Shown: positions 24,208 through 45,295 of the stretch, piece after piece
Layout: every line of letters starts with the position of its first letter
Position numbering within the stretch: position 1 is the first letter of the stretch
Assembly: GCA_029778075.1 (NCBI GenBank)
Contig: JAKORA010000069.1
Coordinates: 1 to 45,295 of the forward strand
Length of the DNA: 45,295 bases
Direction: 5' to 3'
From: Bacillota bacterium
GTDB taxonomy: Bacteria; Bacillota; Dethiobacteria; DTU022; UBA8154
Position numbers and translations under genes: made by a program
The notes under the pieces: model-generated
Seen by the model: only the letters and a program-made list of their open reading frames with translations
Database searches by the model: none
What the model was told of the DNA's origin: nothing

Positions 24208-24210
24208 CTG

Positions 24211-25287: not shown

Positions 25288-25290
25288 TTT

Positions 25291-25509: not shown

Positions 25510-25566
25510 AGTTGTCACCTCCATATACCCCTCTAGCGACAATTAACTGAAGGAATTTCGTTATTT

Positions 25567-28849: not shown

Positions 28850-29121
28850 ATTTGCCTCCTTCAATCCAAAATAGCCAATCAGCGCTATTTCAGTCCATGG
28901 CCCAGGTAAACTTGTCCAAAAATTTAACACTTCTTTTATTCATGGTTAAGTGACTTTTCCCTGTATAAAACCTAACAAAATAATTATCAGGTGTCAAGTT
29001 TGTAAATCATAGTGTTTATCTTCTGATAATGCCAATCATTTCAATAAAGCTTTAAACAAGTATAAGGATGATAATTCAAACATTTTTAGGACTTCTTGTG
29101 CAGGCTTCTTATAATCAAGAT

Positions 29122-30006: not shown

Positions 30007-31540
30007 ACCCGGCAGGCAGATACTCTTCCCTCCCCAGCTGTGCCAGCTTCGCCAGCGCCTCATCCACAGGCGCATCAATGATAAGCTTTCCCTCAGCCAG
30101 GAAAAGAATCCTCTGGCAGCAGGAGACAACCACCTCCGGCTCATGGCAGGTCATCAAGGTTATCCCCCCCCGCGCGCGGTGCTCTCTCAAGGCTGCCATC
30201 AGCAGGCCAAGCCGGCCGCTGTCCTGACCTACGAGGGGCTCATCCAGGATTAAGACACTGGGAGAATAGGCCAGGACCGAAACCAGGGTTAACCTCTTTT
30301 TTTCACCCAGGCTCAGGGTAAAGGGATTTTTCTCTTTATATTGCCGCAGCTCGAACTTTTCCAGTAACCGGTCAACCTTACCTTCAATTTCCCGCGGATC
30401 TTCATCGCTCAAAAAATGCGAGGCCAGCGCTGCCTCCCTGAAAACGGTATGCTCAAAGATCTGGTGATTGGGATTTTGAAAGGTAAGACCCATCTCCTGC
30501 GCACGGCGTGTAACTTTTTTTCCGGTTATATCTTCGCTATGCAAATAAATTTTCCCTTCACCCGGCTTAAGAAGTCCCAGCAGCGCCAGTAAAAGGGTGG
30601 TTTTACCGCTGCCGTTATCCCCCATCACGGCAAGTATCTCTCCCGGGTAGGCAGAAAAACTTACCCCGCTGAGAACTTTCTTTCCTTCGTAACCTGCGCT
30701 CAGGTTATTTACGGAGAGGAGAGGTGTCCTTTCTTTCTTCTCCTCCAAGGGGTCCGGGGTTTTGTTTTGCGGCGGCAAAGCTCCCTCCCGGCCATCCTCT
30801 CTACCGGCAGCCAATATAGCGGCTGAAACATATTTCTTCTGCGCTTCCCCGGCAGTGCCCTCCCCAACAATTCTGCCGCTGTCCATGAACAGCAGTCGAT
30901 CTGAAATGGAAGCAAGCCGCTCCAGGCGGTGCTCAATCACAATAATAGAGATTTCCTGCTCCTCCCTCAGCTTTTCCAGGGTTCGGAGCACCTCCATGGT
31001 ACAAAAAGGATCCAGGTTCGCCGTGGGTTCATCCAGGATGAGAAGGGCAGGGGTCATCGCCAGCACCGAGGCAATAGCCACCCGCTGTTTTTCGCCCCCG
31101 GAAAGGGTATGGAGCTTCCTTTCCCTTAAATTCTGAGCTCCCACGGCTTGCAGGGCAAAGCTGACCCGCTCGCGTATTTCCTCCGGAGCTATACGCAGGT
31201 TTTCCGGGCCGAAAGCCACCTCATCGTTTACCGTAAGGGTACAAAGCTGGGCTTCCGGATCCTGCTGCACCAGGCCCACAATCCCGGAAAGCCCTCCCGC
31301 AGGGTAATCCCTGGTATCCCGGCCCAGTATGCGGACAACCCCTTCCATTTTTCCAGGGTAAGCGTGGGGGATAAAGCCGGCCAAACAGAGGGCCAGGGTG
31401 GATTTACCGCAGCCACTGGGGCCTGTTATCGTCAGGAACTGGCCCGGGTCTACCCGCAGGTTGATCCTCTCCAGCGCCGGAGAGGTTGAACCGCTGTATG
31501 TAAAAGAAAGATCCTGGATATCAACGACCGGTTCGCTCAT
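29975..31540 (-). CDS. ecfA: Fused tandem ECF ATPase (EcfA1-EcfA2/CbiO-like)
   Basis: 521 aa with two ABC cassettes: Walker A GPSGCGKST and GDNGSGKTT, signatures LSGGEKQR and LSLGEKKR, Walker B LILDEP twice. Confidence 0.9.
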   Translation of the reverse strand: MSEPVVDIQDLSFTYSGSTSPALERINLRVDPGQFLTITGPSGCGKSTLALCLAGFIPHAYPGKMEGVVRILGRDTRDYPAGGLSGIVGLVQQDPEAQLCTLTVNDEVAFGPENLRIAPEEIRERVSFALQAVGAQNLRERKLHTLSGGEKQRVAIASVLAMTPALLILDEPTANLDPFCTMEVLRTLEKLREEQEISIIVIEHRLERLASISDRLLFMDSGRIVGEGTAGEAQKKYVSAAILAAGREDGREGALPPQNKTPDPLEEKKERTPLLSVNNLSAGYEGKKVLSGVSFSAYPGEILAVMGDNGSGKTTLLLALLGLLKPGEGKIYLHSEDITGKKVTRRAQEMGLTFQNPNHQIFEHTVFREAALASHFLSDEDPREIEGKVDRLLEKFELRQYKEKNPFTLSLGEKKRLTLVSVLAYSPSVLILDEPLVGQDSGRLGLLMAALREHRARGGITLMTCHEPEVVVSCCQRILFLAEGKLIIDAPVDEALAKLAQLGREEYLPAGYELPAPGERR

Positions 31541-31572: not shown

Positions 31573-32655
31573 TTATTCTACAAGAATCCTGTTTACCATC
31601 TTTACCCAGTACCCTCCTTCGTAATTGGCGGCAATCAGGCGTAGCGTATCCTCCTCCCGGATGAGCAGCATCCGGTCGTCATTTAACACTTCCTGCAGTG
31701 CAAATTCCACTGTGTAGCCGTCCGTAGCCGCAACGGTAAGCTTTTTAGCCCCCTCCAGGGGAGAAGCCTCCTGTAAAATTACCTTCAAAGGGATACCGGT
31801 ATACTCCCGCGGGGGAACCCGGGTGTACTCTCCCTTTAGTTCGGCTGTTATTGTTGTCTCATACCGGCCGAAGTCGGAAAGCTGGAAAGAGAGGGGTTTT
31901 TCCACCGCCCCCTCCACCCGGCAGCGGGGGCCTACCCAGGGAGGCTCAAAAACAGCGGCAAAGTAGTAAACAGCTCCGATGGCCAGCAGTAGCGTCAGTA
32001 TAGCTGTTACAGCCAGCCTGAATCGGCTGCGGGCTTTATTCATGACCCCGCCCGTCGTCGCCTCGGTGGCGGTCTCTTCCCCTGAAAGGCCCGAAATTCG
32101 AAAAGGCCTGGCCTGCAGCACGATCTCCAGCACACTGTGTCCAAAGCTGCCCGCCAGCAGAACACCGGAAACAAAGGCGATAGCGCTGATAAAGAGAAGG
32201 TAGCTGACAGGGGCGCCGGCAAAATAGAGGAGCTGGAAAACAAAAACGTTGGAAGCAGCTGAAACACCTCCGGCCAGCATGTAGCTTCCCAAACTATGAC
32301 GCCTGCTGACCAGCAGGACAACATCAACCAGCACACCCTGAACCAGGGAAACCAGGATGATGGCCACCCCATGGCTACTGCCGGTGAGCAGTTCGATTAC
32401 TCCTTTGAGCAGGCCGACGGCGGTAGCGGCGCCTGGCCTGCGGATCAACCCCGCCGCCAGGATGAACCAGAATATATGCAGCCCGGAAACAAACTGCCCG
32501 GCACCGAAAGGAACGACAAAAATGCGGTTTAAAAGATTGCCCAGGTAGCCGACATAGGTACTCATCACCCCGCCGATTCCGCTCAAAACGGCAACGATAA
32601 GGAGATCCCTATTGCTCAGGTAATATTCTTTACGTTTTTTTAGCTCCTCTTTCAC
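31573..32655 (-). CDS. ECF S-component-like membrane protein fused to an extra TM helix and a C-terminal Oxidored_molyb-like extracytoplasmic domain
   Basis: 360 aa, GTG start (GGGGGttataca-GTG). aa 1-183 form six hydrophobic helices with a generic ECF S-component look. aa 211-236 form a further TM helix (RFRLAVTAILTLLLAIGAVYYFAAVF). aa 237-360 are soluble: VEGAVEKPLSFQLSDF...YTGIPLKVIL...ATDGYTVEF...YWVKMVNRILV. Confidence 0.65.
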   Translation of the reverse strand: MKEELKKRKEYYLSNRDLLIVAVLSGIGGVMSTYVGYLGNLLNRIFVVPFGAGQFVSGLHIFWFILAAGLIRRPGAATAVGLLKGVIELLTGSSHGVAIILVSLVQGVLVDVVLLVSRRHSLGSYMLAGGVSAASNVFVFQLLYFAGAPVSYLLFISAIAFVSGVLLAGSFGHSVLEIVLQARPFRISGLSGEETATEATTGGVMNKARSRFRLAVTAILTLLLAIGAVYYFAAVFEPPWVGPRCRVEGAVEKPLSFQLSDFGRYETTITAELKGEYTRVPPREYTGIPLKVILQEASPLEGAKKLTVAATDGYTVEFALQEVLNDDRMLLIREEDTLRLIAANYEGGYWVKMVNRILVE

Positions 32656-32802: not shown

Positions 32803-33369
32803 TCAATCAATGCGGATAATCATTACATTGCGCACCCAGTAAGGCCTGTTTGCCTCACCCGGCTCTCGCTGGCCGACGACCAACTGGAAGGGATTGCCTT
32901 TTTCCGGGTTATACTCCCTGCCGTTTTCCTCCCAGGCCAGGATCATCTTGTACTTTGTTTGGGGATTTTGCTCGTCAATATAATCTTCCCGCTTGATATC
33001 CTCAAGAGGAAACTCCACCTCATAGCCGTCCTCAGCGATAAAAGTTACCCTGGAGGCATGATCCTGCAAGCTCACTTTTTCATTTAAAAGATGCCATACC
33101 CAGACTCCTTTAAAATGAACATATTCCTTCGACCCATATGAGTTAAGGGCGAAATAAGTGGCTTCCACCAGGCCGTCTTCCATGGACTTCAGCTCATCCA
33201 GCGTGAAGGAAGCCCTGCTTTGTACGGCGTCCCCCTTAATCACAACTGTGCCCCGGGGAACTTTTTCGGACTGAGCACATCCACACCCTGCGGCGCAGGT
33301 GATCAGAAGCAGCAAAAAAGTAATAGTTGCTGCCTTATTTTTATAAACACACTGGCACAACCACTGCAT
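32803..33369 (-). CDS. Small lipoprotein consisting of one Oxidored_molyb-like module
   Basis: 188 aa. Signal peptide with a lipobox-like LLITCAAGC, then VVIKGDAVQ..FTLDELK...FKGVWVWHLL...AEDGYEVEF...FQLVVG...YWVRNVMIIRI. SD tAGGAGGcactttgc-ATG. Confidence 0.6.
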   Translation of the reverse strand: MQWLCQCVYKNKAATITFLLLLITCAAGCGCAQSEKVPRGTVVIKGDAVQSRASFTLDELKSMEDGLVEATYFALNSYGSKEYVHFKGVWVWHLLNEKVSLQDHASRVTFIAEDGYEVEFPLEDIKREDYIDEQNPQTKYKMILAWEENGREYNPEKGNPFQLVVGQREPGEANRPYWVRNVMIIRID

Positions 33370-33645: not shown

Positions 33646-36600
33646 TCATTCTCGCTTGGCCAGCACATTCACAATAACCGCAGCGGCTTCAGCTCTGGTA
33701 GCTTTACCCTGCGGCCGCAGTGTGTTGTCAGGATATCCGCTAATGACCCCATTTTTCACCGCGGCGGCCACAGCTTCCCTGGCCCAGGCAGAGATACTGC
33801 CGCTGTCCAAGAAAGAGAGCTCTTCCGCTACCGGTGTCAATTCGGCGGCCTTCACGACCATTACAGCCAGCTCCTCGCGTGTGATCGCCTCATCCGGTCC
33901 AAATGTATCATCGTTATAACCGCTGATGATACCATATGATGCTGCTGTAGAAACAAACCCCTGTGCCCAGTGACCTGAAGTATCTGCAAAGGTTTTGTCA
34001 CTTTTGGGTGCCAATTGGAAGGCTTTTACAAGAACGGTGGCAAATTCCGCACGGGTGATATTATTGTCCGGTTTGAAGGTGCCGTCCGGATAACCGCTGA
34101 TAGCCTCGAGTGCGACCAGTTTCCTAATGCTGCTTTCAGCCCAGTGGCCCACAATGTCTTTTAACATTTCTGCATCCGAAACCAGCTCAATACGCACAAT
34201 CTGCCCAATGGATGTTTGCCCGCTGACAGCCGGCCCGACAAGCCGCAGCGGCCAACTGCTGTCGGACTCCGGTATGGGTGCCCCGTTTAATCTATTGGCG
34301 ACAATGTAGTTGCTGTTGCGGATAATATCCGCGCTGTCGAGCGTTACCTTATGACCGTCAGCTGCCGTGAGCACCACCTGGTACCCGGCAAGGGCCAGAT
34401 CATCATTGAAGGCGTTCTCGGAGTGCTGGTCGGCATCATCGACAAATCCGGCGAGGAACCACAGCGGCATCCCTTCCCAGACCCGTCCTTGAGAATCGGT
34501 GTAAGTTGCCTTGTGTTCGGCGCCGAACTGACAGGCGAGCGCCTGCTCGAAATAGGTCCTGCTCACATCATACTCCAGGCCGCCAAGAGCCTTTCCGTCT
34601 AGCTTCAGTGTCCAATCGCCCTGGGGTATGGAGTATACCCTGATTTCCGTAATCCACTTGGCTGATAAGCCGGCACAGGATGGATACATGACACCGTCCA
34701 TATAATTATAGTGCCAGTATTTTTCCGGCAGCGTCTCGTGCATATCCCACTGTCCGTAGACGTTGTCACCCCCTGGAGCAAAAAACAGGCGCATACCATC
34801 CTGATACTCGGGTACATACTTTCCATCAGCCCACCAGGCCAGGATGGCCTCTCCCTGGCGTGCCAGCACCGAAGGATCGGGATAGATGGAGGAGTAGGGA
34901 AGCCTGGTCTCGAAACCGTCTTTGGCCACAAACACTATCTCTGTACCGGCACCCATGTGACCTACAAGCCCGCAAAGATCCCTGACGCGGGTGCCCTTTA
35001 CGGCATTGGCGATCTTGAAGCCGCCAGGATAGGTCTCGTCAGGATCCCAGAGATCATCGGGTTTCATCGTGAGCCCCTCGAATTTGTATACCGTTGTCCC
35101 GTCGCCAATCACCTCGAGTTCACTCTCCATCCAGCGATAATCAACTGTTACCTCCTTAAGGATGGTAGTTCCGTCTTCGGCGTACTTGACGATACGGATT
35201 GAGGGTAAGGGCTGAACAGTGCCAAAAGATGCCAGTTCAATTTCCACGATATTACCCACGCTGGTACCACCAAGGGCGCCGTCTTTGGCAACACCGTTTC
35301 CGACCAGCCTGAGGGGGGCTGAGTTGCCGGTAAGCGGCGCACCGTTGCATTTATTGGCGACAATGTAATCGTTGCTCCAGGCCACATCAGCGCTGGCGAA
35401 ATCTTTGGTGTAGCCGTCGCCGGCTTTTACCAGGATGGTGTAACCGGCCGTGGCCTGATTGGCATTAAAGGCGTGGGGTTGCCGGTCATCAACCCAGCCT
35501 GCCAGCAGCCAGAGGGGTATACCCGACCAGACGTTGCCGTCTTTATCAGTCCATTCTTTAAGATGGCCTGAATGCGGGCAGGCGAGTGCCTCCTCGAACT
35601 CAGCCTGCGAGATGACATCGCTGATCTTGCCGGTAAGTTTAAGATTCCAGCTGCCGGGAGCAGGCTCGGGGGTCTGCAGCTCGGGTATTTCTATCCGTAC
35701 AATGTTGCCGACAGCAGAGCCTCCAAGGGAACCGCCCTCTTTGGCCACACCGTCGCCGACCAGGCGCAGGGGCCACAATGAACCGGCAAGGGGTTCACCG
35801 TTACACTGATTGGCGATAATGTAAGCGTCACTGCGGGCCACCTCCGTGCTCGCAAAGGTCTTGCTATAACCGTCCCCGGCCATCACTTTCACGGTATAAC
35901 CCGCGGCGGCAACGCTGTCATTAAAGGTCCAGTGGGCGCCTTTCTCGATGTCGTCCACCGCACCGAGAAGCACCCAGAGGGGCACGCCGGACCAGACGTT
36001 GCCATCCTTGTCGGTCCATTCCCTGTAGTGGCCTGAACCCGCACAGGCCAGCCCTTCTTCAAACTCCTGCTGGCTGATGGTATCCCCTACATCACCGACC
36101 AGCTCCAGGGTCCATCCCTCATCCGGTTCGGGGAGTTTGGAAAGCTCAATGCGCACAATGTTGCCTACCTGCTGCCCGCCAAATACAGCCGGACCTTTGA
36201 GATGGAGCGGCCAGCACGGTTTTCCTGCCGGAGTTTGGAGCGGAAGCGGCTCCCCGTTAAGGGTATTGGCTACGATATATCCGTTGTTGCGGGCGATGTC
36301 CGCGCTATCCAGAGTTGTCTTCCAGCCGTCACCGGATATCAAATCCACTACGTAATGCTGGGCGGCCAGCTCATCGTTGAAGTTGAAATGGTCAGGACCT
36401 TCGTCGGGGTCATCATCAACCATAGCTACCAGCAGCCAAAGCGGCATGCCCCCCCACACATTTCCTTCCTCATCTGTCCAGGAGACGCGGTGGGTAGGAC
36501 GGCAGGATAGGGCCTCCTCGAAGTAGGCTTTGGTTACGGAAGTATTTTTTGCACCGGAGAGTTGAAGGGTCCAGTCCGTAGGTACAGTTCCTCCCCTTGA

Positions 36601-37173
36601 GGCGTCCGTAGGGATAGTTCCTCCCGTTGAGATAACAGTTTTTACTGCAGCGGTAGCCGCTGCCTTGACGGCCGTTAAATCTGAGGGGTCATCGATACCG
36701 GCGGCGTAGTAAAACTCAACCCTGTCACCGTTAACAAGTTCAATCAAGTTCAGGGCGCCGGCGGGGTTGTTGTAACCGTCTTTATAGACATCATTGACAT
36801 AAGCGTACCAGTAACCCGGATTTTTGCGTGTATAACTCCCCACGTTGTCGAGGAGAAGAGCGCCTGATGAGGCGTAGTTCTTGTCGGTGACATCATAGGT
36901 GAAGCCGCCGGCAACAGCGGCTGCTTGAAGCGCCCCCAGCGGTGTGGTTTCGCTCACAGTGTATTCTACCCCAGAGTTGTAAGCGTTTACGTTAAAAGTT
37001 TCGTCAGCTGACAAAGCAACTTCCCCATCGTAAAGAATGTCCATTGTCAATTTCCCGGCCGCCGCGGTACTAACTGGCTGCGGTACGACTGCTGTCAAGA
37101 CGAGTGCTGCGGCCAGCACCGCTAGCGACATAACCCGTAAAACTTTCTGCCTATACCTTGTCAGTTCAATCAT
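33646..37173 (-). CDS. SLH-anchored modular cell-surface protein: signal peptide, DUF4430/transcobalamin-like domain, 4 Oxidored_molyb-like modules plus 1 divergent module, 3 SLH domains
   Basis: 1175 aa. DUF4430-like aa 41-157 (GYWYAYVND...LVNGDRVEFYY). Modules at aa 201-344, 354-496, 509-647 and 854-997 each start W(T/N)LxL.G and end GNIVRIEL-like. Divergent module at aa 659-848. Three SLH repeats at aa 1003-1172 (e.g. ISGYPDGTFKPDNNITRAEFA). SD tAGGAGGtagacaagc-ATG. Confidence 0.85.
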   Translation of the reverse strand: MIELTRYRQKVLRVMSLAVLAAALVLTAVVPQPVSTAAAGKLTMDILYDGEVALSADETFNVNAYNSGVEYTVSETTPLGALQAAAVAGGFTYDVTDKNYASSGALLLDNVGSYTRKNPGYWYAYVNDVYKDGYNNPAGALNLIELVNGDRVEFYYAAGIDDPSDLTAVKAAATAAVKTVISTGGTIPTDASRGGTVPTDWTLQLSGAKNTSVTKAYFEEALSCRPTHRVSWTDEEGNVWGGMPLWLLVAMVDDDPDEGPDHFNFNDELAAQHYVVDLISGDGWKTTLDSADIARNNGYIVANTLNGEPLPLQTPAGKPCWPLHLKGPAVFGGQQVGNIVRIELSKLPEPDEGWTLELVGDVGDTISQQEFEEGLACAGSGHYREWTDKDGNVWSGVPLWVLLGAVDDIEKGAHWTFNDSVAAAGYTVKVMAGDGYSKTFASTEVARSDAYIIANQCNGEPLAGSLWPLRLVGDGVAKEGGSLGGSAVGNIVRIEIPELQTPEPAPGSWNLKLTGKISDVISQAEFEEALACPHSGHLKEWTDKDGNVWSGIPLWLLAGWVDDRQPHAFNANQATAGYTILVKAGDGYTKDFASADVAWSNDYIVANKCNGAPLTGNSAPLRLVGNGVAKDGALGGTSVGNIVEIELASFGTVQPLPSIRIVKYAEDGTTILKEVTVDYRWMESELEVIGDGTTVYKFEGLTMKPDDLWDPDETYPGGFKIANAVKGTRVRDLCGLVGHMGAGTEIVFVAKDGFETRLPYSSIYPDPSVLARQGEAILAWWADGKYVPEYQDGMRLFFAPGGDNVYGQWDMHETLPEKYWHYNYMDGVMYPSCAGLSAKWITEIRVYSIPQGDWTLKLDGKALGGLEYDVSRTYFEQALACQFGAEHKATYTDSQGRVWEGMPLWFLAGFVDDADQHSENAFNDDLALAGYQVVLTAADGHKVTLDSADIIRNSNYIVANRLNGAPIPESDSSWPLRLVGPAVSGQTSIGQIVRIELVSDAEMLKDIVGHWAESSIRKLVALEAISGYPDGTFKPDNNITRAEFATVLVKAFQLAPKSDKTFADTSGHWAQGFVSTAASYGIISGYNDDTFGPDEAITREELAVMVVKAAELTPVAEELSFLDSGSISAWAREAVAAAVKNGVISGYPDNTLRPQGKATRAEAAAVIVNVLAKRE
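34183..36573 (-). repeat. Intragenic tandem module repeats of the S-layer protein gene
   Basis: Module coordinates from my residue count: 36142-36573, 35686-36114, 35233-35649, divergent 34630-35199, 34183-34614. Confidence 0.8.
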
Positions 37174-37437: not shown

Positions 37438-38901
37438 TTATCTGGCAATCGTGATCTTTTCAGTCTCGCCTTCGTAGACTACATCCGCGCCTATGGTCTC
37501 GCTGACAAAGCGCAAGGGAACGAAGGTGCGGCCGGGTGGAAGCGTCGTTGGGGGACAATCAATAGTCTGCTCCGCTCCATTAACCCGAACAGTGCTGGAA
37601 CCCAGGGTCAGGATAATCTCTTTCTCCCCGTCGGTAATAGTAACCCGTCCTGTTTCTGGATCCCAACCAACTTGGGCGCCCAGGGCCTCGCTGACAAAAC
37701 GCACCGGCACCAGCGTGCGGTTGACCTCGGCATTAAGATAAGGCGCCGCATCCAGGGTGTAAGGCGCACCGTTGACGGTGGCTTCCATACTTCCAATGGT
37801 GAGCACAATGACTTTTGGCTCTGATTTCTCAGCTTCCGTATCTTTCCCGGGCTCTGCCCCTGTTTCCGGCTCTTCCACAGCGGGAGGTACTGCCGGAGAA
37901 CCGTCACCGGGCTCCTGGCCCTCAATAAAGTATTCAAAGGTAACAACGTCGCTGTCCAGCTTGCCGGGGCCGATTGTTACCGCTTTAATCGTGGTGTTCT
38001 TGGTAAGAGGTCCAATGGGATGATTGATTTGCCCCAAAACATCCGCCCGGGACGACCACCACCTGCTGGCAATCCAGTTGTACATAGGGCTGTTCATGGT
38101 CGGGGTGCTGCCGTCGGTGGTGTAATAAATCTTGTCGTCATCCATGTGCAGGTTACTCAACGTTACCATGGTGCCGGCAGGCACCGTGCCGCCCGGCGGG
38201 TTGGCTTGCGGGGCGTCCCATTTCTGCGGCTTGTCAGTGAGCACCTCGATCTTGTTCAGGTATTTAACGAACAGGTTTCCCGTCTGCTCGGTTACCGTCC
38301 GCTGCCCCAACATCAGCAGCAGGGTATTCAGTTCATTCATATATTCGGGATTATCACTGCCCTCCACGCTGATCAGGCCAATAATCGTCTCCACCGGCAC
38401 TGCGCCCGAAGGGTCACCTGGGATATGCCCATCACCGTCGCCGCCGCCAACTTTGAAATTAGGAAAACGATAGCGCTTGTCCTGGAACAGCTCCTTCATC
38501 GTAAGCGTTACTGTGTAGCCGTCAACTGCCGTAAACTTAAGCATCGTAGCTTCTTCTTCCTTAATTCCAGCTTTAAGGAGCAGATCCCACAATTTAACCC
38601 CCTTCCCCACATACCACTTCTTGGTGGGCCAGGTATTAATACAGCTGTATAGATACTGGTGCTGCTCCATTTTCTCCAACTCTTCCCGGGTAAAGGTCAC
38701 CGGGTTCGCCACCCCTTTTCCCGTGATCTCCAGAGAATGCGAGGTGGCAAGGGCAACCCCGGGAGCCACCAAGTTAAGCGCAACGGCAAGTAGCCATAAA
38801 ACTATAACAGCCGCCGTCAACCTGCAGAAGTTAAACTTAATTCGGCACCTTTTCAATAGAGGAAACGATAGCCTTCTCCAAGCTCTTTTACCGGTTATCA
38901 T
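37438..38901 (-). CDS. Exported protein: Oxidored_molyb-like module, chitobiase/Fn3-associated-type beta domain, Pro/Glu linker, copper-amine-oxidase-N-like stalk domain
   Basis: Start set at the ATG at 38901 (GGGGAGGtatttttc-ATG, MITGKRAWRR...) rather than 38976. Contains LEITGKGVANPVTFTREELEKM...WYVGKGVKLWDLL...AVDGYTVTL, then KIYYTTDGSTPT, and two C-terminal repeats ...RTLVPVRFVSEALGAQV / ...RTFVPLRFVSETIGADV. Confidence 0.7.
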   Translation of the reverse strand: MITGKRAWRRLSFPLLKRCRIKFNFCRLTAAVIVLWLLAVALNLVAPGVALATSHSLEITGKGVANPVTFTREELEKMEQHQYLYSCINTWPTKKWYVGKGVKLWDLLLKAGIKEEEATMLKFTAVDGYTVTLTMKELFQDKRYRFPNFKVGGGDGDGHIPGDPSGAVPVETIIGLISVEGSDNPEYMNELNTLLLMLGQRTVTEQTGNLFVKYLNKIEVLTDKPQKWDAPQANPPGGTVPAGTMVTLSNLHMDDDKIYYTTDGSTPTMNSPMYNWIASRWWSSRADVLGQINHPIGPLTKNTTIKAVTIGPGKLDSDVVTFEYFIEGQEPGDGSPAVPPAVEEPETGAEPGKDTEAEKSEPKVIVLTIGSMEATVNGAPYTLDAAPYLNAEVNRTLVPVRFVSEALGAQVGWDPETGRVTITDGEKEIILTLGSSTVRVNGAEQTIDCPPTTLPPGRTFVPLRFVSETIGADVVYEGETEKITIAR

Positions 38902-38989
38902 GAAAAATACCTCCCCTTTTCTAATTTTTGGCATTAACAAAACCACAGTGAATAACGCCAACGGTAAACGGCGCAACCGTCAGCTAAAA

Positions 38990-39322
38990 CTATTCATCGC
39001 CAGTATCGGTCAGCATAAAGAGCTGCCCTGTTTCAGGGTCTTTATAGACCGTACCAATCTTTTGGTAAAGTTTACCGCGATCCCTGGTTTCGATCAGATC
39101 CTCACGTATCTTTGGAGCTTCTGTCACCTCCCGTCCGCGGCTCACGTTAATACGCTCCCCCACCGGCCCCAGGTCGATATTCCAGTAAACAGCCAGAGCA
39201 AGCATTAGCCCGCAGGCAAATACCAGCATGGCATCCACGATATTAACAACCCCCTCCAAGGGGTTTACTTCCTCCGCTGCCCTACGCCTTAAGTATCTCC
39301 TGCCTCTCAGCCTCCCGTCCAC
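38990..39322 (-). CDS. ExbD/TolR-like single-TM protein (DUF2149-type)
   Basis: The GTG at 39322 has GGAGGTGtttgacc upstream, so it is preferred over the ORF-track TTG at 39328. Arg-rich N-terminus, then NPLEGVVNIVDAMLVFACGLMLALAVYW (ExbD-like TM helix) and a short soluble tail. Overlaps the ExbB-like gene by about 41 nt. Confidence 0.6.
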   Translation of the reverse strand: MDGRLRGRRYLRRRAAEEVNPLEGVVNIVDAMLVFACGLMLALAVYWNIDLGPVGERINVSRGREVTEAPKIREDLIETRDRGKLYQKIGTVYKDPETGQLFMLTDTGDE

Positions 39323-39953
39323 GGTCAAACACCTCCAGCAGGCTCTCCATCAGCGCTTCCAGAGAGCCCAAATATTCCTCGTACCACCTTTTGCGCAGCC
39401 GGGAAATAACAAAAGCGACACCGGCAGCAGCCAGGCCAGCTACCGTGGTATCAAAGGCGATGAGCAGAGAATCAGCCAGCGCCTGCGTATCTCCCTGGCT
39501 AAGGGCGATTATCCCCGGTCCGAGTGGGATAAGCGTGCCCATTAAGCCGAACATGGGTGCCAGGCGCGCTACCAGGTCGGTCCTATCGGTTATCCTGGAA
39601 TAATGCCGTTCCTCGCCGGCAAGCAGGCGGCGCCCCAGCGCCTCCAAGGAAGCGGCAGGCAATTTAGCGTGGCTGATCAGTTCACCCAAAACTGCTTTTT
39701 GCCGCCGGAAAAGGCCGCTTTGCTCGACCTCTTCCATAATCTGCGCCGCACTCTTTACTTGGAAGGCATCGATCAGCCCCGGCAGGTCAATTTTTTTTCT
39801 GCGCCGTTCTGTGCATACTTCCACCAGCAGGGCACCGAGCTCAAACGCCGCCAGAGCCAGAAGCAGCAGCAGGATAACAATAGTAGGGATTAACAAACCG
39901 GAGGAGATACTGTGCAACGTATCTTTTAAGGGTATTAAGATAGATTCAACCAC
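39282..39953 (-). CDS. MotA/TolQ/ExbB-family proton-channel protein
   Basis: 223 aa. N-terminal TM helix, cytoplasmic helical region, then LAPMFGLMGTLIPLGPGI...IAFDTTVAGLAAAGVAFVI, typical of the MotA_ExbB channel helices. GTG start 7 nt after the upstream stop. Confidence 0.8.
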   Translation of the reverse strand: MVESILIPLKDTLHSISSGLLIPTIVILLLLLALAAFELGALLVEVCTERRRKKIDLPGLIDAFQVKSAAQIMEEVEQSGLFRRQKAVLGELISHAKLPAASLEALGRRLLAGEERHYSRITDRTDLVARLAPMFGLMGTLIPLGPGIIALSQGDTQALADSLLIAFDTTVAGLAAAGVAFVISRLRKRWYEEYLGSLEALMESLLEVFDRGREAERQEILKA

Positions 39954-39959
39954 TTTGTT

Positions 39960-41753
39960 TTATAGCTCCTTTACGTATTCTCTGTATTTTTTCCTTGCAC
40001 CTGAAAGAATACAAACCAATAAAAAGGCTGCCGTAAAAAGATCCAGATCCTTTTGCTGCTCTGGAAGGGGAAGGGGTATGGTATAATCGAGCGACATCTC
40101 GAATACCTGCACTTCGGGAGGGCTGCTTTCCGGCTGGCCTAAGGATTCATCGCCTGTTGTAAAGGCGACTGCCAGCTCCTCTTTCTTTGCCAGGTACTGC
40201 CAGTTGTCTTCCGGCAACGGCAGCTTGTCTTCCGCTGTTAAATCGGGATACTCCGGATCTGTTATCTCTTCCTGTTGCAGCTTCTGGGCGGGATTCTCCG
40301 GCTCTTTAGCGGCGGTTGACACGAGAATCTCTACATCCTCTTCGGCAAGGTGCCGGTCATCAACTTCCGGCAACATCACAGGAGGTTCCTCAGGCCTCTC
40401 TTCCTCCGGAAGATTATTCTCTTCTACTGCTGCCATACCCGGCTCCTCTGACTCCCCGTCGGGGCCGTTAATTACACAGGTGGCCGTATAGCTGCCGTCT
40501 ACCGTTTCAACGGTGATCACGGCTGTGCCGGGGCCGACAACCGTCACCAGCCCCCTGGTATCCACCGTGGCCACGCTGGTATCGCTGGAACGCCAGATGA
40601 CATCCTTGTTTGTAGCATTAAAGGGCTCTACAGTTGCCTGCAACTGGAATGTGTGCCCAACCGGGAGGTCAAGTGCGGTTTGATCGAGAAATACACCGCT
40701 AGGCGGCCCGCCGGGGATCTTTGTCGGATCATCCGCTTCAGGATCAATGTAGAATGTGTAGGTGGCCACCTCGCTGTCCTCCTTGCCCGGACCGATCGTT
40801 TTCATCTTGAGGACGACCACATCCCGGCCTTCTACATTGTTACTAATCATCTCTTTTACAATCTCAATGGGGATGTTAATACTGTCCACATCGCCTCTTT
40901 GCTCCCACCAGCGCCTGGCGCTCCAGTTAAACATCGGACTGTTCAAAGTCGGCTCGCTGCCGTCCGTGGTATAATAAATTTTGTCGGCGTCAGTATTCTT
41001 ATTTTCCAGTTTAAGCTGGGTCCCCGGGGGCAGCGCCGTCCCATCGGGGATATTCACTTTCGGGGCATCCCATTTTTCCAGGGGTGTGGTCAGCACCTCG
41101 ATTTTCTTAATATATTTAACAAATAAAAGCCACGTTTGCTCGGTTACAGCTCGCTGCCCCAGCACCAGCATCGGGGCATTTCTATCGTCCATTTCTTCGG
41201 GGTCCTCGCTATCCTCAGCAGCTACCAGGGAGATAATCGGCTCAACTTCCATCGCCCCCTCCGATGAACCGGGGATACTCCCATCAGTGGGATGATTCTC
41301 CTTTAAACCGGGAAAATAGTAACGTTTGTCCACCAACAACTCCTTAACAGTCAGAGTCATCTCGTAGTCATCGGCCGCGATGAATTTAATAAGCGTGGCC
41401 TCCTTCTCCTTGAACCCTGCCAGGGAGAGAAGGTCGCTTAGTTTTACTCCCCTGGCTATGTACCACCTCTTGGTTGGCCAGGTGTTGATCGTGCTGTAGA
41501 CGTGCTCGTACTGCTCCATTGCCTCAAGCTCGGCCTGGGTAAGCTCCAGCGGGGTCGTCACCCCTTCCCCGAAAATCTCCAGTGCCACCTTTTCGGCAAA
41601 GGCAGGTGCCGGTGCTATTAGATTGGGCATAAAGGCAAACAGTAACAAAGTGATGACAGCCATCAAGCCTTTGCCAAACCAAATTCCTGACCGGGGTTTA
41701 AAATATCGTATAATTACCGCTCCTCCTCTCAAAAAAGTAATATGCATGCTCAT
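39960..41753 (-). CDS. Exported, C-terminally membrane-anchored paralog of 37438-38901: Oxidored_molyb-like module, chitobiase/Fn3-associated-type domain, Big_2 domain, acidic E/P-rich stalk, TM anchor
   Basis: Contains LEIFGEGVTTPLELTQAELEAM...WYIARGVKLSDLL...AADDYEMTL, KIYYTTDGSEPT, Big_2-like LPVGHTFQLQATVEPFNATNKDVIWRSSDTSVATV, and the tail LFTAAFLLVCILSGARKKYREYVKEL. The start is uncertain: ATG at 41753 or 41747, ORF-track TTG at 41768, or just after the GAGAGGAGGAG at about 41725. Confidence 0.7.
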   Translation of the reverse strand: MSMHITFLRGGAVIIRYFKPRSGIWFGKGLMAVITLLLFAFMPNLIAPAPAFAEKVALEIFGEGVTTPLELTQAELEAMEQYEHVYSTINTWPTKRWYIARGVKLSDLLSLAGFKEKEATLIKFIAADDYEMTLTVKELLVDKRYYFPGLKENHPTDGSIPGSSEGAMEVEPIISLVAAEDSEDPEEMDDRNAPMLVLGQRAVTEQTWLLFVKYIKKIEVLTTPLEKWDAPKVNIPDGTALPPGTQLKLENKNTDADKIYYTTDGSEPTLNSPMFNWSARRWWEQRGDVDSINIPIEIVKEMISNNVEGRDVVVLKMKTIGPGKEDSEVATYTFYIDPEADDPTKIPGGPPSGVFLDQTALDLPVGHTFQLQATVEPFNATNKDVIWRSSDTSVATVDTRGLVTVVGPGTAVITVETVDGSYTATCVINGPDGESEEPGMAAVEENNLPEEERPEEPPVMLPEVDDRHLAEEDVEILVSTAAKEPENPAQKLQQEEITDPEYPDLTAEDKLPLPEDNWQYLAKKEELAVAFTTGDESLGQPESSPPEVQVFEMSLDYTIPLPLPEQQKDLDLFTAAFLLVCILSGARKKYREYVKEL

Positions 41754-42020
41754 GCATATTTTGGTCAAAATTTTTCTATTATGTAGTAAATTCTTACACT
41801 ACACTATTTTATTCCTTGATAAACACAATTTATCTTCACTATGCACATATATTCATAATAGGAGCAAAGTCTTCCTTAAAATCTATTATATAACAACTAC
41901 AACTACATTTAAAGATGTAAATAAAGAGTAACAACGCCCCTCCTTTTGAAACTATACATTATTACAATTATACGCTTTTCCGATACCTTTTCTGCATAAA
42001 ATTCTTGTATAATTCCTCTT

Positions 42021-42061
42021 ATAATTAAACTTCATGGTGGCAAGGAACTGCTGCCATGAAG
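42021..42061 (-). terminator. Rho-independent (bidirectional-looking) terminator after the metallophosphoesterase gene
   Basis: CTTCATGG..GCA-loop-TGC..CCATGAAG (8 bp, a 2x2 internal loop, then 3 bp) about 50 nt after the stop at 42112. Followed on the minus strand by TTTAATTAT. Confidence 0.6.
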
Positions 42062-42111
42062 TTTGCCTTTTCAATTTGCCGTTTTGTTTGTTCAGGTTGT
42101 GTGAGCTCCTG

Positions 42112-42391
42112 TTAGATCTCTACCAGTGCGTTTAACGCATTGTTTAAGCGAGCTGCCGCCTGGTCCACTTCCTCCTGGCCGGCATTCTCGTTCTGGAAGA
42201 CCCGTTCGGCCACCAGCAGCATGTTCGAAACCTGTCTCCAGGAACGGGATGTATAAGCCGCCGGGTTCAGGGAACGGGCTTCGTTGATGGCCGCCTCCAG
42301 GGCTGTTTTATCCGCTTTTTCTACCAGCTGCGCCATGGCGGCTTCAAGCCGGGCCAAAGCCTGGTCTATGGCAGCCTGAGTGACATGCTCC
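42112..42391 (-). repeat. Copy A of a 280-nt near-identical segment (3' end of the coding region)
   Basis: Aligns base for base with 45016-45295. I counted about 21 mismatches in 280 nt by hand. Confidence 0.9.
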
Positions 42392-44013
42392 AGAGCGCAG
42401 ATGGCCTGGGCGATCCTTAAGGCGTTCTGGAGTGACTGCCAGTTGGAAGGTGTGTAGCCCCCCTGCTCCAGGGACAGAGCTTCGTCGATGGCCTCCCGCA
42501 ACTCTTCTTTGCCATATTCTACCGCCGGTTTGACGGTAACTTCAACGCTGGCGGAAAAGCCGCCGTCAGCAGAGATGGCCGTAATAATCGCCTTACCTTC
42601 CGCTACTGCGGTCACCAACCCGGTTGCGCTGACTGTGGCAATCGTCTCATCGCTGCTCTCCCAGGTCACAGCTTTGTTTGTAGCGTCTACAGGCTGCACT
42701 TCTGCGGTAAATTGAAAGGTTTTCCCCACCTCCAGCACCTGATCACCTTCAGGGATGATGATGCCGGCAACAGGAATGTTTTTTACAAGCGTATAGCTGT
42801 CAATCACATTTCCAGCGGCATCCCTTGCAATCATGGTCAGTGTATCCCCTTCGATCTCGATCACCTGATAGTTGCTGACCCAGGCCACCTGCTCGGCGAT
42901 ATAATCATAATCTGGCCCGGGACCGTAATATTTCGTGCCCGCATTGCCCATAACATAGACGATTCCCTCGCCGTCCGGCTGGATTTCGCCGCTACGCAGC
43001 GGCTTGGTCCGCATGTAGACATGCTGGTGCCCGACAAAGACCATATCAACGCCGCCCTGTTCGAAAAGAGGCACCCAGTGTTCCTGCAGAACATCGGCGC
43101 GCCAGTCATGGACCACCGGATAGGGCGGATGGTGGAAGACAAGAAATTTCCAGCGCTGCGCGCTGCCTGTAAGGTCATTCAGCAACCAGCCGGCGATCTT
43201 TTCATAATCACCGATGCCGGGGACGCCCATGTAGTTGCTGTTCAGCACGGTAATATGGCAATTCCCGTAATCAAAAGAATAGATGGTTTCTTCATATTCC
43301 TGCGGTCCGTTCCGGGGCAGGGCAAAGGAGTTTATAAACAGCTCCGTATAGTCATGGTTGCCCACGGCCGGCATTAGCGAGAGGTCCTTAAAAACCGGCC
43401 AGGCGGCGGCGAAAAACTCCTGCCATTCCGTTATGCTGCTGCCCTTGTCGACCAAATCCCCGCCGAGCAAGGCAAATTTCAGGCCGGGGTTATCGGCTGC
43501 AACCTGCTCCAGCATCTCTCCCCAGATTTCATGCCCATTCTGGACATCACCCATGTAAAGGAAGGAAAAGCAACTGTCCGCGGTAGCGGTGGTAAAGGTG
43601 GCGGGTTCGCTCCAGGCACCTTCCCGGCCAACGCGGTAAACGTATTCCGTCCCCGGAGTCAAGCCCTGAAGGGTTGCCTCGAAGTGATAATGCCCGTCAT
43701 AGAGGTCACTTCTTTCCCCGGTGACTTCCCAGGCCCCTTCAAAACTGCCGTTAAACTCAGACGCGGGCATGTACTGGATACTGTCCTGCGTGATATCGGT
43801 CCCTGTTCGCCAGGAAATGGTCTGGGTGGTCAGGGGATCCTCCGTCCAGGAGAGGATAATATGATCTGGTAGGCCGGGATTTGGACCGCCGTTGCCCTGC
43901 GCCGCCAGAACCGCAGTTGCCAGCGGCGAGAAGGCAAAGAGGAAGACCAAGATCAGAAGGCAGGCGAGATTCTTGCCAATTTTGAACTTATTGACAGATT
44001 TGATACCTTGCAC
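42112..44013 (-). CDS. Secreted purple-acid-phosphatase-like metallophosphoesterase with a Big_2 domain and two FIVAR-like helical repeats
   Basis: 633 aa, GTG start, signal peptide. PAP N-terminal Fn3-like ILSWTEDP...TISWRT...TPGTEYVYRV. Metallophosphoesterase motifs GDVQ, GGDLV, GNHDY, FHHPPY and GHQHVY. Big_2-like VGKTFQFTAEVQPVDATNKAVTWESSD. The C-terminus has 2x YT..SW....L..A repeats. Confidence 0.8.
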   Translation of the reverse strand: MQGIKSVNKFKIGKNLACLLILVFLFAFSPLATAVLAAQGNGGPNPGLPDHIILSWTEDPLTTQTISWRTGTDITQDSIQYMPASEFNGSFEGAWEVTGERSDLYDGHYHFEATLQGLTPGTEYVYRVGREGAWSEPATFTTATADSCFSFLYMGDVQNGHEIWGEMLEQVAADNPGLKFALLGGDLVDKGSSITEWQEFFAAAWPVFKDLSLMPAVGNHDYTELFINSFALPRNGPQEYEETIYSFDYGNCHITVLNSNYMGVPGIGDYEKIAGWLLNDLTGSAQRWKFLVFHHPPYPVVHDWRADVLQEHWVPLFEQGGVDMVFVGHQHVYMRTKPLRSGEIQPDGEGIVYVMGNAGTKYYGPGPDYDYIAEQVAWVSNYQVIEIEGDTLTMIARDAAGNVIDSYTLVKNIPVAGIIIPEGDQVLEVGKTFQFTAEVQPVDATNKAVTWESSDETIATVSATGLVTAVAEGKAIITAISADGGFSASVEVTVKPAVEYGKEELREAIDEALSLEQGGYTPSNWQSLQNALRIAQAICALEHVTQAAIDQALARLEAAMAQLVEKADKTALEAAINEARSLNPAAYTSRSWRQVSNMLLVAERVFQNENAGQEEVDQAAARLNNALNALVEI

Positions 44014-44243: not shown

Positions 44244-44854
44244 CTAAGACTCAGTTCCCCAGACCGCTTCAGGCGCACCATTGGAAGCCTGGACCGCTTC
44301 CACTACGCCGGAGAGCTCGTACTCCGCTTTCATATACTCGTTCCCGGTCAGCTCGCCATCCAGCGTGACGGTCATGGAAAGGGTCACAAAGTCGCCGGCC
44401 TCCAGGGGATCACCCACGTAATACAGGTAATCGCCGTCAACTTGCCAGTCGTCAGGATCATAGGAACCCGATGCTTGTGGGGTTAAGCCGAAAGTGATGT
44501 TCTGGTATATGTCATCTTCGGATTCGAAAGCGTCGAAGTAGGCAACGGGATCAGCTATTACGTTACCTTCGCTATCAAAAAAGGTCCACGTCCCACCCAT
44601 GTTGACTCTTAAGACAATGGCCTTGGTACCAATATTGTAGATGTCCCATTCCACCACATTGGTGTCCCCGGGTTCCAGTTCATGTTGTCCGGGCCTTCTA
44701 AAAGATAGCTTCCCACGTCAATCTCTACTTTGCCGGCTTTGAAGACAATGGGGTCCGTTTCTTTTTCCGCTGTGAACCAGGCCATGGTCCCTCCGCCGAT
44801 CAGAATCCCCACTAAAAGCAGCGTCAGCATGGTTACAACTAATTTTGCTCTCAT
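44244..44854 (-). pseudogene. TasA/camelysin-family protein with a SipW-type signal peptide, split by a 1-nt frameshift
   Basis: ORF 44609..44854 (MRAKLVVTMLTLLLVGILIGGGTMAWFTAEKE..., SD GGAGGTaaggaaaa-ATG) and ORF 44244..44657 are adjacent frames of one gene. Adding one base in the CCCGGGG run (plus 44666-44672) restores ...NMNWNPGDTNVVEWDIYNIGTKAIVLRV... Confidence 0.7.
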
Positions 44855-45015
44855 TTTTCCTTACCTCCGGTTTGTTTTTTTGACAAACCGGCAGCCAGGC
44901 TGCCTCTTTTTGAGGAGGCCCTTGGCTTTGCGTCCCTGCCTCGCGACAGGTTTGCCTTTATCAATTTGCCGTTTGATGGTTTAAGTTAATGATTAAATAA
45001 AGCTCTTTTTAGTTT

Positions 45016-45295
45016 TTAGACCTCTACCAGTGCGTTCAAAGCATCGTTTAAACGGGCTGCCGCCTGATCCACTTCCTCCTGGCTGGCATTTGCATCCTGG
45101 TAGACCCGCTCGGCCACCAGCAGCATGTTCGAAACCTGTCTCCAGGAGCGGGAGGTATAATCCGCCGGGTTCAGGGAACGGGCTTCGTTGATGGCCGCCT
45201 CCAGGGCTGTCTTGTCGGCTTTTTCTACCAGCTGCGCCATGGCGGCTTCAAGCCGGGCCAAAGCCTGGTCTATGGCAGCCTGAGTGGCATGCTCC
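45016..45295 (-). CDS. 3' end of a second FIVAR-tailed surface or secreted protein gene (5' part outside the window). Copy B of the 280-nt repeat
   Basis: The frame is open to the window edge. It encodes ...ARLEAAMAQLVEKADKTALEAAINEARSLNPADYTSRSWRQVSNMLLVAERVYQDANASQEEVDQAAARLNDALNALVEV, nearly identical to the C-terminus of the 42112-44013 product. Confidence 0.65.
   Translation of the reverse strand, partial: EHATQAAIDQALARLEAAMAQLVEKADKTALEAAINEARSLNPADYTSRSWRQVSNMLLVAERVYQDANASQEEVDQAAARLNDALNALVEV

Follow-up and report, generated by a model that had tools for sequence, protein, structure and literature searches.

The DNA analyzed here, a window of 45,295 nt (contig JAKORA010000069.1, positions 1 to 45,295, assembly GCA_029778075.1) from a Bacillota bacterium of the Dethiobacteria, carries at positions 38990-39953 an overlapping pair of genes for a MotA/ExbB-like channel protein and a DUF2149 protein. 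The pair lies in a string of genes for surface proteins and an energy-coupling factor (ECF) importer, and we read the whole as a proton-driven, wall-spanning relay that acquires a tungsten or molybdenum (W/Mo) cofactor or metal, a reading to which we give a probability of about one half. An earlier note made from the same sequence had described an ExbB/ExbD-like pair without TonB or an outer-membrane receptor among wall-associated proteins, and had suggested that a flanking stalked protein might be its effector. What gives the system a probable function is a combination of three features: the link to a riboswitch for the molybdenum or tungsten cofactor (Moco/Tuco), the sulfite oxidase (SUOX) fold of the surface proteins, and the ECF importer.

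A stator-like pair without TonB

The channel subunit is a MotA/TolQ/ExbB-family protein of 223 aa (39282-39953, minus strand) that matches PF01618 (MotA_ExbB) in Pfam with 37.9 bits against a cut-off of 22.9 (E 1.8e-9). Its direct similarity to solved MotA chains is weak (E 0.003), and hydropathy places three transmembrane (TM) segments at residues 19-37, 134-152 and 165-183, a predicted topology of the ExbB/TolQ type and not of the four-helix MotA type. In the third segment, D168 and T170 are invariant. The partner, a DUF2149 protein of 110 aa (38990-39322, minus strand), begins at a GTG at 39322 and overlaps the MotA-like gene by 41 nt, as first read. Gene callers chose this start on six identical anaerobic-digester metagenome contigs, and a GGAGG lies 9 nt upstream of it; an alternative TTG start at 39328 would give 112 aa and an overlap of 47 nt. 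The two genes also overlap in relatives, by 26 nt in Pelotomaculum schinkii (locus L087) and by 50 nt in Desulfoscipio gibsoniae (locus L090).

Of the three models that the earlier note had proposed for checking the pair, PF01618 and PF09919 scored above their cut-offs, the latter (DUF2149) with 35.1 bits against 27.1 on the open reading frame (ORF) 38990-39328. The third, PF02472 (ExbD/TolR), was unmatched in the 112-aa protein, for which PF09919 was the only family reported at E<=0.01 and an NCBIfam scan gave no match. Since PF02472 is unmatched, the DUF2149 protein is best counted as a putative functional analog of ExbD/TolR/MotB from outside the PF02472 family. Its layout, an Arg-rich N-terminus, one TM helix (residues 25-43) and a short tail (of ~60 aa), had been recognized before and holds across 61 homologs. 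The TM motif reads NPxxGxxNxxDxMLVFACGL in both aligned sets of homologs (61 ORFs from related loci and 32 database proteins), and its Asp (D30) never varies in either; close to the C-terminus there is another conserved motif, GTVYxDPxTG. A profile search for DUF2149 returned 485 clusters at 50 % identity among 1.84 billion representatives. The earlier remark that this type has no assigned function was too strong, since DUF2149 is HmuV of the Bacteroidota heme operon; it remains fair to the extent that HmuU and HmuV, a MotA-like/DUF2149 pair, are only presumed to energize the TonB-dependent receptor HmuR (PMC11681262, PMC10434189, PMC12583661).

Pfam was run against essentially all of the larger ORFs of the 45 kb without a hit to a TonB_C, TonB-dependent receptor, Tol or flagellar family, in line with what had been noted from the sequence alone. 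The flanks in the related complete genomes L087, L090 and L031 likewise hold no Ton or Tol genes just outside the locus. Taken together, the sequence evidence supports the pair as an ExbB/ExbD-like stator without a TonB, receptor, Tol or flagellar partner.

The pair is widespread. One genome per species was scanned, at least 597 genomes had a MotA-like relative, and 80 loci (here given L numbers) were kept, from Bacillota, Coriobacteriia and one Dehalococcoidales genome. MotA-like relatives run into the thousands, and the best of them, 65-87 % identical, come from Pelotomaculum, Desulfotomaculaceae, Syntrophomonas and Dethiobacteria. When the ORFs of these loci were compared with the window proteins, a DUF2149 gene followed the MotA-like gene in 58 of 71 loci, and a gene of the stalk type described below immediately preceded it in 55 of the 71. 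The synteny of the pair with surface-protein genes that the earlier note had made its test is thus strong in relatives, and the arrangement is far beyond chance.

The stalk protein

What would such a stator drive? The flanking stalked protein proposed earlier is still the best-supported guess, and more precisely the product of the gene at position -1 (39960-41768, minus strand; a 602-aa ORF, called as 597 aa from the ATG at 41753). From N- to C-terminus this protein has a signal peptide, a degenerate SUOX-like domain in which Thr occupies the Cys position, a CHB_HEX_C/Fn3_assoc domain, a Big_2 domain, an acidic, Pro/Glu-rich linker of ~150 aa, and a TM helix with a short tail (SGARKKYREYVKEL). 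Its stop codon lies 6 nt ahead of the start of the MotA-like gene; in relatives the gap is -4 or ~6 nt, a start/stop coupling. The upstream proteins share a C-terminal signature, approximately VFEMS..(D)..Y.A..FL.LFLSGA..RY.EY.KE, that is, a short TM helix and then a basic-aromatic cytoplasmic tail. A hidden Markov model (HMM) of the last 32 residues gave exactly one match per locus, and in all 54 of the 54 MotA-bearing loci with a match it fell in the gene at position -1; by the same model, the motif is absent from all of the paralogous wall proteins of the same loci.

Because the tail motif occurs once per locus and always just before the MotA-like gene, the stalk protein is likely to be the dedicated partner of the stator, a TonB-like force transducer of inverted topology. 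It has no TonB_C domain (Pfam), and its anchor is at the C-terminus, opposite to that of TonB. Stator and stalk would be physically coupled. Contigs from a digester metatranscriptome cover the operon at low depth, and one of them (39821-40137) bridges the junction of the stalk gene and the MotA-like gene, which, with DNA carry-over possible, is consistent with co-transcription of the two.

Surface proteins of the sulfite oxidase fold

The entire gene string, from a 633-aa exported phosphoesterase to the T component of the ECF importer, is on the minus strand, and each of its five exported or membrane proteins has at least one Oxidored_molyb-like domain. The label "wall-associated proteins" was correct in that these proteins are anchored to wall or membrane, but it missed that they are built of SUOX-fold (molybdopterin-binding) domains, that an ECF importer belongs to the string, and that orthologous operons carry a riboswitch. 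The flanks are paralogous and exported, as had been claimed: the 602-aa stalk protein and a 512-aa protein (p512; 37438-38976, minus strand, called as 487 aa) both have signal peptides, and both consist of an N-terminal degenerate Oxidored_molyb-like domain followed by CHB_HEX_C/Fn3_assoc. In p512, a Cu_amine_oxidN1 domain, a wall-binding module, forms the C-terminal end. A third protein, p1175 (1175 aa; 33646-37173, minus strand), has four SUOX-like repeats at about 201-347, 354-499, 509-650 and 854-999 and is anchored by three C-terminal S-layer homology (SLH) domains. The fourth is a 188-aa lipoprotein (p188; 32803-33369, minus strand) that consists of a single SUOX-fold domain without the Cys hairpin. 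A fifth domain copy is fused to the S component of the importer (see below). For p1175, a B12/transcobalamin-like (DUF4430) N-terminal domain was also considered and was dropped, there being no Pfam match at E<=1.

The fold assignment is clearest for p188. An AlphaFold2 (AF2) model built with 40 homologs had a mean confidence (pLDDT) of 89.9, and its top Foldseek matches were the pterin-binding protein PruR (7kom, 7kos, 7rkb; E 1.7e-6), followed by the Moco domains of SorA, YedY/MsrP, SoxC and chicken sulfite oxidase (probability 1.0, E 3e-6 to 1e-4). A sequence search of p188 against the PDB gave no match. In a profile alignment to SorA, the hairpin that bears the Mo-ligand Cys is truncated in p188; the hairpin of PruR is truncated likewise, and PruR binds pterins rather than Moco (PMC11194511).

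How many of these domains could still hold a catalytic metal? N-terminal domains of the p512/p602 type number 296, in 232 proteins of 73 loci, and the position aligned to the Cys of MsrP is variable, with Cys in only 19 of the 296. The p1175-type repeats, found in 16 loci, keep a Cys in a C-A-G-type motif in 49 of 51 cases, including all four repeats in the window. The spacing of this motif resembles the C-A-G-N-R-R of sulfite oxidase, an equivalence drawn from the motif and a rough alignment only. The export signals bear on the same question. The signals of the stalk protein, p1175, p188 and a 372-aa protein of P. schinkii are of the Sec or lipoprotein kind and contain no RR motif, and p512 has an atypical RR distant from the hydrophobic region and no clear twin-arginine translocation (Tat) signal; Escherichia coli MsrP, examined for comparison, has the expected Tat motif RRQVLK. 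Since the signals are of the Sec or lipoprotein kind and not Tat, the wall proteins would not be exportable with a cofactor already loaded.

Importers and accessory genes

Pfam and NCBIfam identify a complete ECF system in the window. Its S component (31573-32655, minus strand) is a YkoE-like PF09819 protein with an extra TM helix and a C-terminal SUOX-like domain, which presumably lies on the extracytoplasmic side; the same fusion occurs in L034 and L047. The ATPase (29975-31540, minus strand, 521 aa) is a fused double ECF-type ATP-binding cassette (ABC) protein with two ABC_tran domains (TIGR04520/04521), and the T component (29122-30144, minus strand) is of the CbiQ family (PF02361/TIGR02454). 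The true start of the T gene is probably the ATG at 29969. In the window, this natural ATG is put out of frame with the CbiQ ORF by a difference of 1 nt (29962-29969, minus strand: ATGGCTTC in the window versus ATGGGCTTC in L001 and in the RNA contigs); contig L001 is from the same organism, and the change is a strain-specific frameshift or else an error of assembly.

Besides the window and L087, 14 related loci, of Desulfotomaculia, Syntrophomonas and Dethiobacter, have an ECF system whose S component is a PF09819 protein. In another 14 loci, from Mogibacterium, Anaerovoracaceae and related Clostridia, it is replaced by a FecCD permease, an ATPase and a Peripla_BP_2 binding protein, encoded directly upstream of the stalk, MotA and DUF2149 genes. 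The closest relative of this binding protein among PDB entries with a named ligand is MolA (HI_1472; 5e-18); ranking above it are two structural-genomics entries without ligand, 4HN9 and 4OVK.

Further genes recur around the pair: those for small SUOX-like proteins, FMN_bind proteins, NapH-like (Fer4_5) proteins, ApbE, type I phosphodiesterase-like proteins and purple-acid-phosphatase-like proteins. D. gibsoniae encodes a fusion of FMN_bind with Oxidored_molyb. A survey of extracellular flavinylation makes no mention of SUOX-like or MotA-like partners (PMC8238504).

In the window, the purple-acid-phosphatase-like metallophosphoesterase is the 633-aa exported protein at the head of the string (42112-44013, minus strand; Pur_ac_phosph_N, Metallophos, Big_2 and FIVAR domains). 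A hairpin at 42026-42065 follows its gene, and the AT-rich gap of 340 nt ahead of the stalk gene holds a sigma-70-like promoter match, TTTAAA-17-TATAAT (41885-41913, minus strand).

A Moco/Tuco riboswitch in relatives

The regulatory evidence comes from the related loci. Rfam found the Moco/Tuco riboswitch RF01055 five times, in three of the seven loci first scanned, and a covariance model built from those five hits returned 50 matches across the 1.25 Mb of loci, all but two of which (48) lie on the operon strand. Rfam confirmed 16 of 16 matches in eight loci, and 6 in a four-locus scan (two of them seen before). The RNA heads a co-directional run of genes that includes the pair in 20 of 70 MotA loci and in L087 and L090 as well, at least 22 loci in all, and most of the remaining MotA loci end too soon upstream to be scored.

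Its position within the operons varies. The riboswitch lies directly ahead of the ECF S gene in four loci (L009, L012, L087, L045) and is separated from it by ApbE in two (L017, L039). It stands directly ahead of the MotA-like gene in L033; in L048 and L059 it precedes the FecCD-type importer, stalk gene and MotA-like gene, and in L067 the importer and stalk gene. A homolog of the 633-aa phosphoesterase gene comes first behind it in D. gibsoniae, D. geothermicus and Sporotomaculum, and second copies of the RNA precede further genes for SUOX-like wall proteins. Riboswitch-controlled ECF S components normally import the riboswitch ligand or a precursor of it (thiamine pyrophosphate [TPP], FMN, B12, tetrahydrofolate [THF] or preQ1).

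Is the ligand the molybdenum or the tungsten form? Of 45 strong hits, 42 are 110-128 nt long, which implies that they have no P3 stem; among four hits aligned for P3, two have it and two do not. P3-less Moco RNAs were correlated with the tungsten cofactor by Regulski et al., who also described them ahead of "sulphite oxidase" genes in S. wolfei (PMC2408646). Genes for an aldehyde:ferredoxin oxidoreductase (AOR) and a MoeB-like protein are found behind riboswitches near the operons of relatives. L040 has a ModA-type ABC system behind a P3-containing riboswitch of its own, and in L031 a LysR plus TupA-like regulator is adjacent.

Some of the RNAs are in tandem: L090 (1736-1852 and 2162-2281), L017 (2038-2332), L039 (2781-3079) and L045 (3503-3809), the carriers being D. 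gibsoniae (L090) and several metagenome-assembled genomes of Pelotomaculum. A tandem arrangement of Moco RNAs was likewise described for S. wolfei (PMC2408646). Six loci of the Mogibacterium, Anaerovoracaceae and Clostridiales type (L048, L063, L067, L071, L076 and L079) have a weaker Moco-type RNA ahead of a ferredoxin and AOR pair, and in the same six a MoeB-like ThiF gene adjoins the MotA operon, a tungsten "island".

A proposed relay and its strength

How might these parts work together? The MotA/ExbB-like and DUF2149 proteins would form a proton-driven stator in which the TM Asp of DUF2149 accepts the proton, as in ExbB-ExbD, with no outer membrane or TonB involved. The C-terminal TM helix and tail of the stalk protein would dock on this stator, its acidic, Pro/Glu-rich stalk would cross the wall, and its outer part would consist of the molybdopterin-fold and Ig-like domains. 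The stalk protein would then play, in the Gram-positive envelope, the part that TonB plays toward an outer-membrane receptor. The work of the stator would help to pass a tightly bound ligand inward along the SUOX-fold binding modules, in the order four-repeat SLH protein, 512-aa paralog, stalk protein, 188-aa lipoprotein and SUOX-like domain of the S component, where the ECF transporter would import it. Nucleotide or phosphate groups would be removed by the exported phosphoesterases encoded alongside, and in relatives flavinylated FMN-binding modules and NapH-like modules may keep the ligand reduced.

A cofactor relay is proposed because of the riboswitch-ECF rule given above, the molybdopterin fold, the Sec export, the graded wall anchors and the exported phosphoesterases. 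The ligand would most likely be either a W or Mo pterin cofactor itself or one of its precursors or breakdown products. A W/Mo oxyanion species is the less likely ligand, considered because of the MolA-like binding protein. Transport would be inward, and the window operon, which has no riboswitch, would do the same job as the operons of its relatives.

Several points weigh against the relay. Free Moco is labile, and we know of no bacterial Moco importer. No RF01055 was found near the window operon at the Rfam gathering threshold, at E<=1 (28.8-45.3 kb) or with our own model with its filters off, so that the regulatory argument is carried over from orthologs; the locus whose organization is most like that of the window operon, L047, does have the riboswitch. 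The AF2 model of DUF2149 (32 homologs) is of low confidence, with a pLDDT of 59.5 and four short strands. The similarity of the S component to the YkoE structure 5EDL is distant only (E 3e-12). In the p1175-type repeats, the invariant Cys could belong to a genuine catalytic site, and the FMN_bind-SUOX fusions, NapH-like proteins and ApbE fit redox enzymes equally well. Finally, the Coriobacteriia loci have no detectable SUOX-like domain, anchor-tail motif or Moco RNA.

The same Coriobacteriia loci (L049, L060, L061, L068 and L070) encode longer DUF2149 proteins of 139-174 aa, and the pair sits there among wall proteins of the CWB2, SLH and FIVAR/LRR types, which makes them a distinct variant. 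Since the pair occurs in them without SUOX domains or riboswitch, the role of the stator may extend beyond W/Mo, and the module of motor plus wall proteins may be more general than its W/Mo use.

A bolder form of the proposal is that the locus represents the first bacterial salvage system for Mo/W pterin cofactors, with SUOX receptors in an Isd-like relay, an ExbB/DUF2149 motor acting through an inverted TonB analog, dedicated ECF import, and repression by a tungsten-cofactor riboswitch in most lineages, and that the MotA-DUF2149 (HmuUV) pair is a general-purpose motor that pulls metal-organic cofactors off extracytoplasmic binding proteins, and not simply another ExbBD. In this full form we consider the proposal less likely than not. 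We found no paper that links the MotA/DUF2149 pair to the Moco riboswitch, ECF transport or tungsten.

Alternative explanations

Could the SUOX-like wall proteins be enzymes after all? They might be real extracytoplasmic W/Mo-pterin oxidoreductases, supplied with electrons by the FMN-binding and NapH-like proteins. The riboswitch would then match the synthesis of apo-enzyme to the supply of cofactor, and stator and stalk, perhaps together with the ECF importer, would be used to deliver cofactor, to assemble the enzymes or for some unrelated task in the envelope. This accounts well for the FMN_bind, Fer4_5 and ApbE genes within the operons of relatives, for the fusion in D. gibsoniae and for the C-A-G Cys in 49 of 51 p1175-type repeats, and the S. 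wolfei genes behind P3-less Moco RNAs have themselves been read as sulfite oxidases (PMC2408646). It sits poorly with the Sec and lipoprotein signals, which would not allow export with the cofactor bound, with the Mo-ligand Cys in only 19 of 296 domains and with the lack of a hairpin in p188. Four tandem domains on an SLH anchor resemble a capture protein, and the S component itself carries a fused SUOX domain. ECF systems and type II ABC systems dependent on a substrate-binding protein are, to our knowledge, known solely as importers. On balance, we regard the enzyme explanation as unlikely, although it is the main rival of the relay.

The locus could also be a Gram-positive counterpart of the Hmu system, in which the stator powers the import of heme, of some other tetrapyrrole, or of an iron or cobalt chelate and the SUOX domains are scaffolds. 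By family, the pair corresponds to HmuU plus HmuV of the heme operon. In addition, some neighboring wall proteins have Shr-like_HID domains, and the importer families bear names that refer to cobalt (PF09819, CbiQ) or iron chelates (FecCD, Peripla_BP_2). One of 92 unlabelled neighbors, within four genes of one MotA/DUF2149 pair, is a CobN/Mg-chelatase family protein (E 6.6e-54), echoing the association with HmuS in Bacteroidota; archaeal gene contexts may likewise combine CobN, MotA and DUF2149. However, the 80 loci show no NEAT domain and no HmuY, and that CobN/HmuS-like neighbor is the only one in them; the riboswitch is of the Moco/Tuco kind and not a cobalamin riboswitch, the recurrent binding module has the molybdopterin fold, and the binding protein is nearer to MolA than to binders of heme, B12 or siderophores. 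An Hmu-like role is quite improbable.

Slightly more doubtful still is a surface process, in which the stator would move or tension adhesin-like wall proteins (compare GldLM and AglRQS), or would secrete or anchor giant S-layer-associated proteins. The flanking proteins do carry domains of the adhesin type (Big_2, CHB_HEX_C, FIVAR, RCC1, LRR) as well as wall anchors, and the Coriobacteriia pair, among CWB2- and SLH-anchored proteins and without SUOX or riboswitch, would suit such a role. In Bacillota, on the other hand, the pair is repeatedly and tightly tied to importers and a cofactor riboswitch, and genes for secretion ATPases or gliding do not recur in the loci.

An ordinary Ton or Tol system with its TonB or TolA and receptors outside the window, suggested by the family name MotA/TolQ/ExbB alone, is effectively refuted: the relatives are monoderm Bacillota and Coriobacteriia with SLH-, CWB2- and Cu_amine_oxidN1-anchored proteins, the 25 families listed as recurring within 10 kb in the 80 loci include none of the Ton, Tol or receptor kind, and the Pfam-annotated flanks of P. 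schinkii and D. gibsoniae are free of such families.

Other features of the window

Downstream of the ECF genes (12592-28930, minus strand) lie hypA, hypB, hypF, a small ORF (perhaps hypC), hypD and hypE, and after them genes for a membrane [NiFe] hydrogenase related to Mrp antiporters and complex I (Ech/Mbh-type) and a HycI-type protease. A link of the operon to nickel or hydrogenase was considered and dropped as incidental, since hyp or hydrogenase genes are adjacent in 0 of 80 related loci.

On the other side, a gene cut by the end of the window (45016-45261, minus strand) encodes a FIVAR tail ~90 % identical to the C-terminus of the 633-aa protein (42112-42360), which suggests a recently duplicated surface-protein module. 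Between the two, a c-di-GMP-I riboswitch (RF03167, 75 bits; 44886-44965, minus strand) heads the overlapping ORFs 44609-44854 and 44244-44657, both camelysin/TasA-like (Peptidase_M73 signal region). An extra G after 44669 in a metatranscriptome contig would fuse these two ORFs, and the window probably carries an indel of 1 nt near that position.

A PYLIS_3-like match (42 bits; 6240-6337, minus strand) lies inside an uninterrupted ORF for an MttB-family methyltransferase (5887-7293) and has CAG where the model has UAG. Nearby are two more MttB paralogs, a corrinoid protein (2789-3472), a pterin-binding methyltransferase and DUF1638, and the region looks like a non-pyrrolysine methylamine or betaine methyltransferase cluster.

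Significance and comparison with known systems

Why would such a system matter? Motors of the MotA/ExbB type are usually tied to outer-membrane transport, Tol functions, flagella or gliding. Here, a widespread and conserved ExbB-type motor is found in bacteria without an outer membrane, with a candidate force transducer that is unusual and identifiable. The Moco/Tuco link offers a testable role for DUF2149, and for the many cysteine-less "molybdopterin-dependent oxidoreductase" annotations on Firmicute surface proteins. In digesters, the syntrophic oxidation of propionate and butyrate is limited by W/Mo enzymes (formate dehydrogenases, aldehyde oxidoreductases). If the relay is real, Pelotomaculum, Syntrophomonas and their relatives would have a dedicated scavenging system that matters for the dosing of trace metals in digesters, and for the question of whether bacteria exchange Moco.

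The resemblance to ExbB-ExbD-TonB and TolQ-TolR-TolA lies in a channel with three TM segments, a small single-TM partner with an essential-looking Asp, and coupled genes. As in ExbB-ExbD-TonB, there is a third, single-pass protein with a Pro-rich, extended linker that would reach outer ligand-binding proteins. The differences are no less clear: here there is no outer membrane, TonB_C domain or TonB-dependent receptor; the partner belongs to DUF2149 and not to PF02472, and its tail is only ~60 aa long, against ~90 aa for the folded periplasmic alpha/beta domain of ExbD/TolR; and the stalk, unlike TonB, is anchored by its C-terminus and has binding and Ig-like domains at its N-terminus.

The hmuYRSTUV operon of Bacteroidota shares the adjacent MotA_ExbB and DUF2149 genes (HmuU and HmuV, matched by the Pfam families given in the literature) and, like the system proposed here, serves the acquisition of a metal-organic cofactor. 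Hmu, however, belongs to diderm bacteria and has the hemophore HmuY, the receptor HmuR and the CobN-like dechelatase HmuS, none of which is present in the window (Pfam), whereas the pair is accompanied here by SUOX-fold wall proteins, by an importer of the ECF or type II ABC kind and, in relatives, by the Moco/Tuco riboswitch. As the defining components were tested for and are absent, the locus is no Ton, Tol or Hmu system. The heme operon of Bacteroidota is of medical relevance, and the role assumed there for HmuU and HmuV merits a second look.

Among proteins of known structure, PruR is the best match to p188, and both are single exported SUOX-fold domains (with a Sec-type signal) that lack the Cys hairpin. 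At 17-19 % sequence identity, this is a resemblance of fold and not membership. PruR is a proteobacterial signaling protein that controls the diguanylate cyclase DcpA (PMC11194511), and no DcpA-like gene was found among the Pfam-scanned genes of the window; the SUOX domain here is linked instead to transport and Moco/Tuco regulation.

The importers, too, have familiar counterparts. With YkoEDC, which transports hydroxymethylpyrimidine (HMP)/thiamine, the ECF variant shares the PF09819 S family and a dedicated system of fused double ATPase and CbiQ-type T component, and, with riboswitch-controlled YkoEDC, an S gene directly behind a cofactor riboswitch in relatives. It differs in that the riboswitch is for Moco/Tuco and not TPP, that the S component may bear an extra TM helix and an external SUOX-like domain, and that it is accompanied by wall receptors and a proton motor. 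In the FecCD variant, the binding protein is nearest, among PDB entries with a named ligand, to that of the type II molybdate/tungstate ABC system MolBC-A (HI1470-72); the window, however, has the ECF variant, and MolBC-A works without a motor or wall proteins.

In outline the locus would work like ExbBD-TonB, and in layout it may be compared with the Isd and Shr heme relays, whose arrangement in Gram-positive bacteria is well established. By analogy with their NEAT domains, paralogous binding domains would be placed at the depths of the S-layer, the peptidoglycan, the membrane and a lipoprotein, and would end at an ABC-type importer. The domains here have the SUOX fold instead of the NEAT fold, and they are held by SLH domains, Cu_amine_oxidN1 and a TM helix instead of by sortase. 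Isd relays also differ in working without a proton motor.

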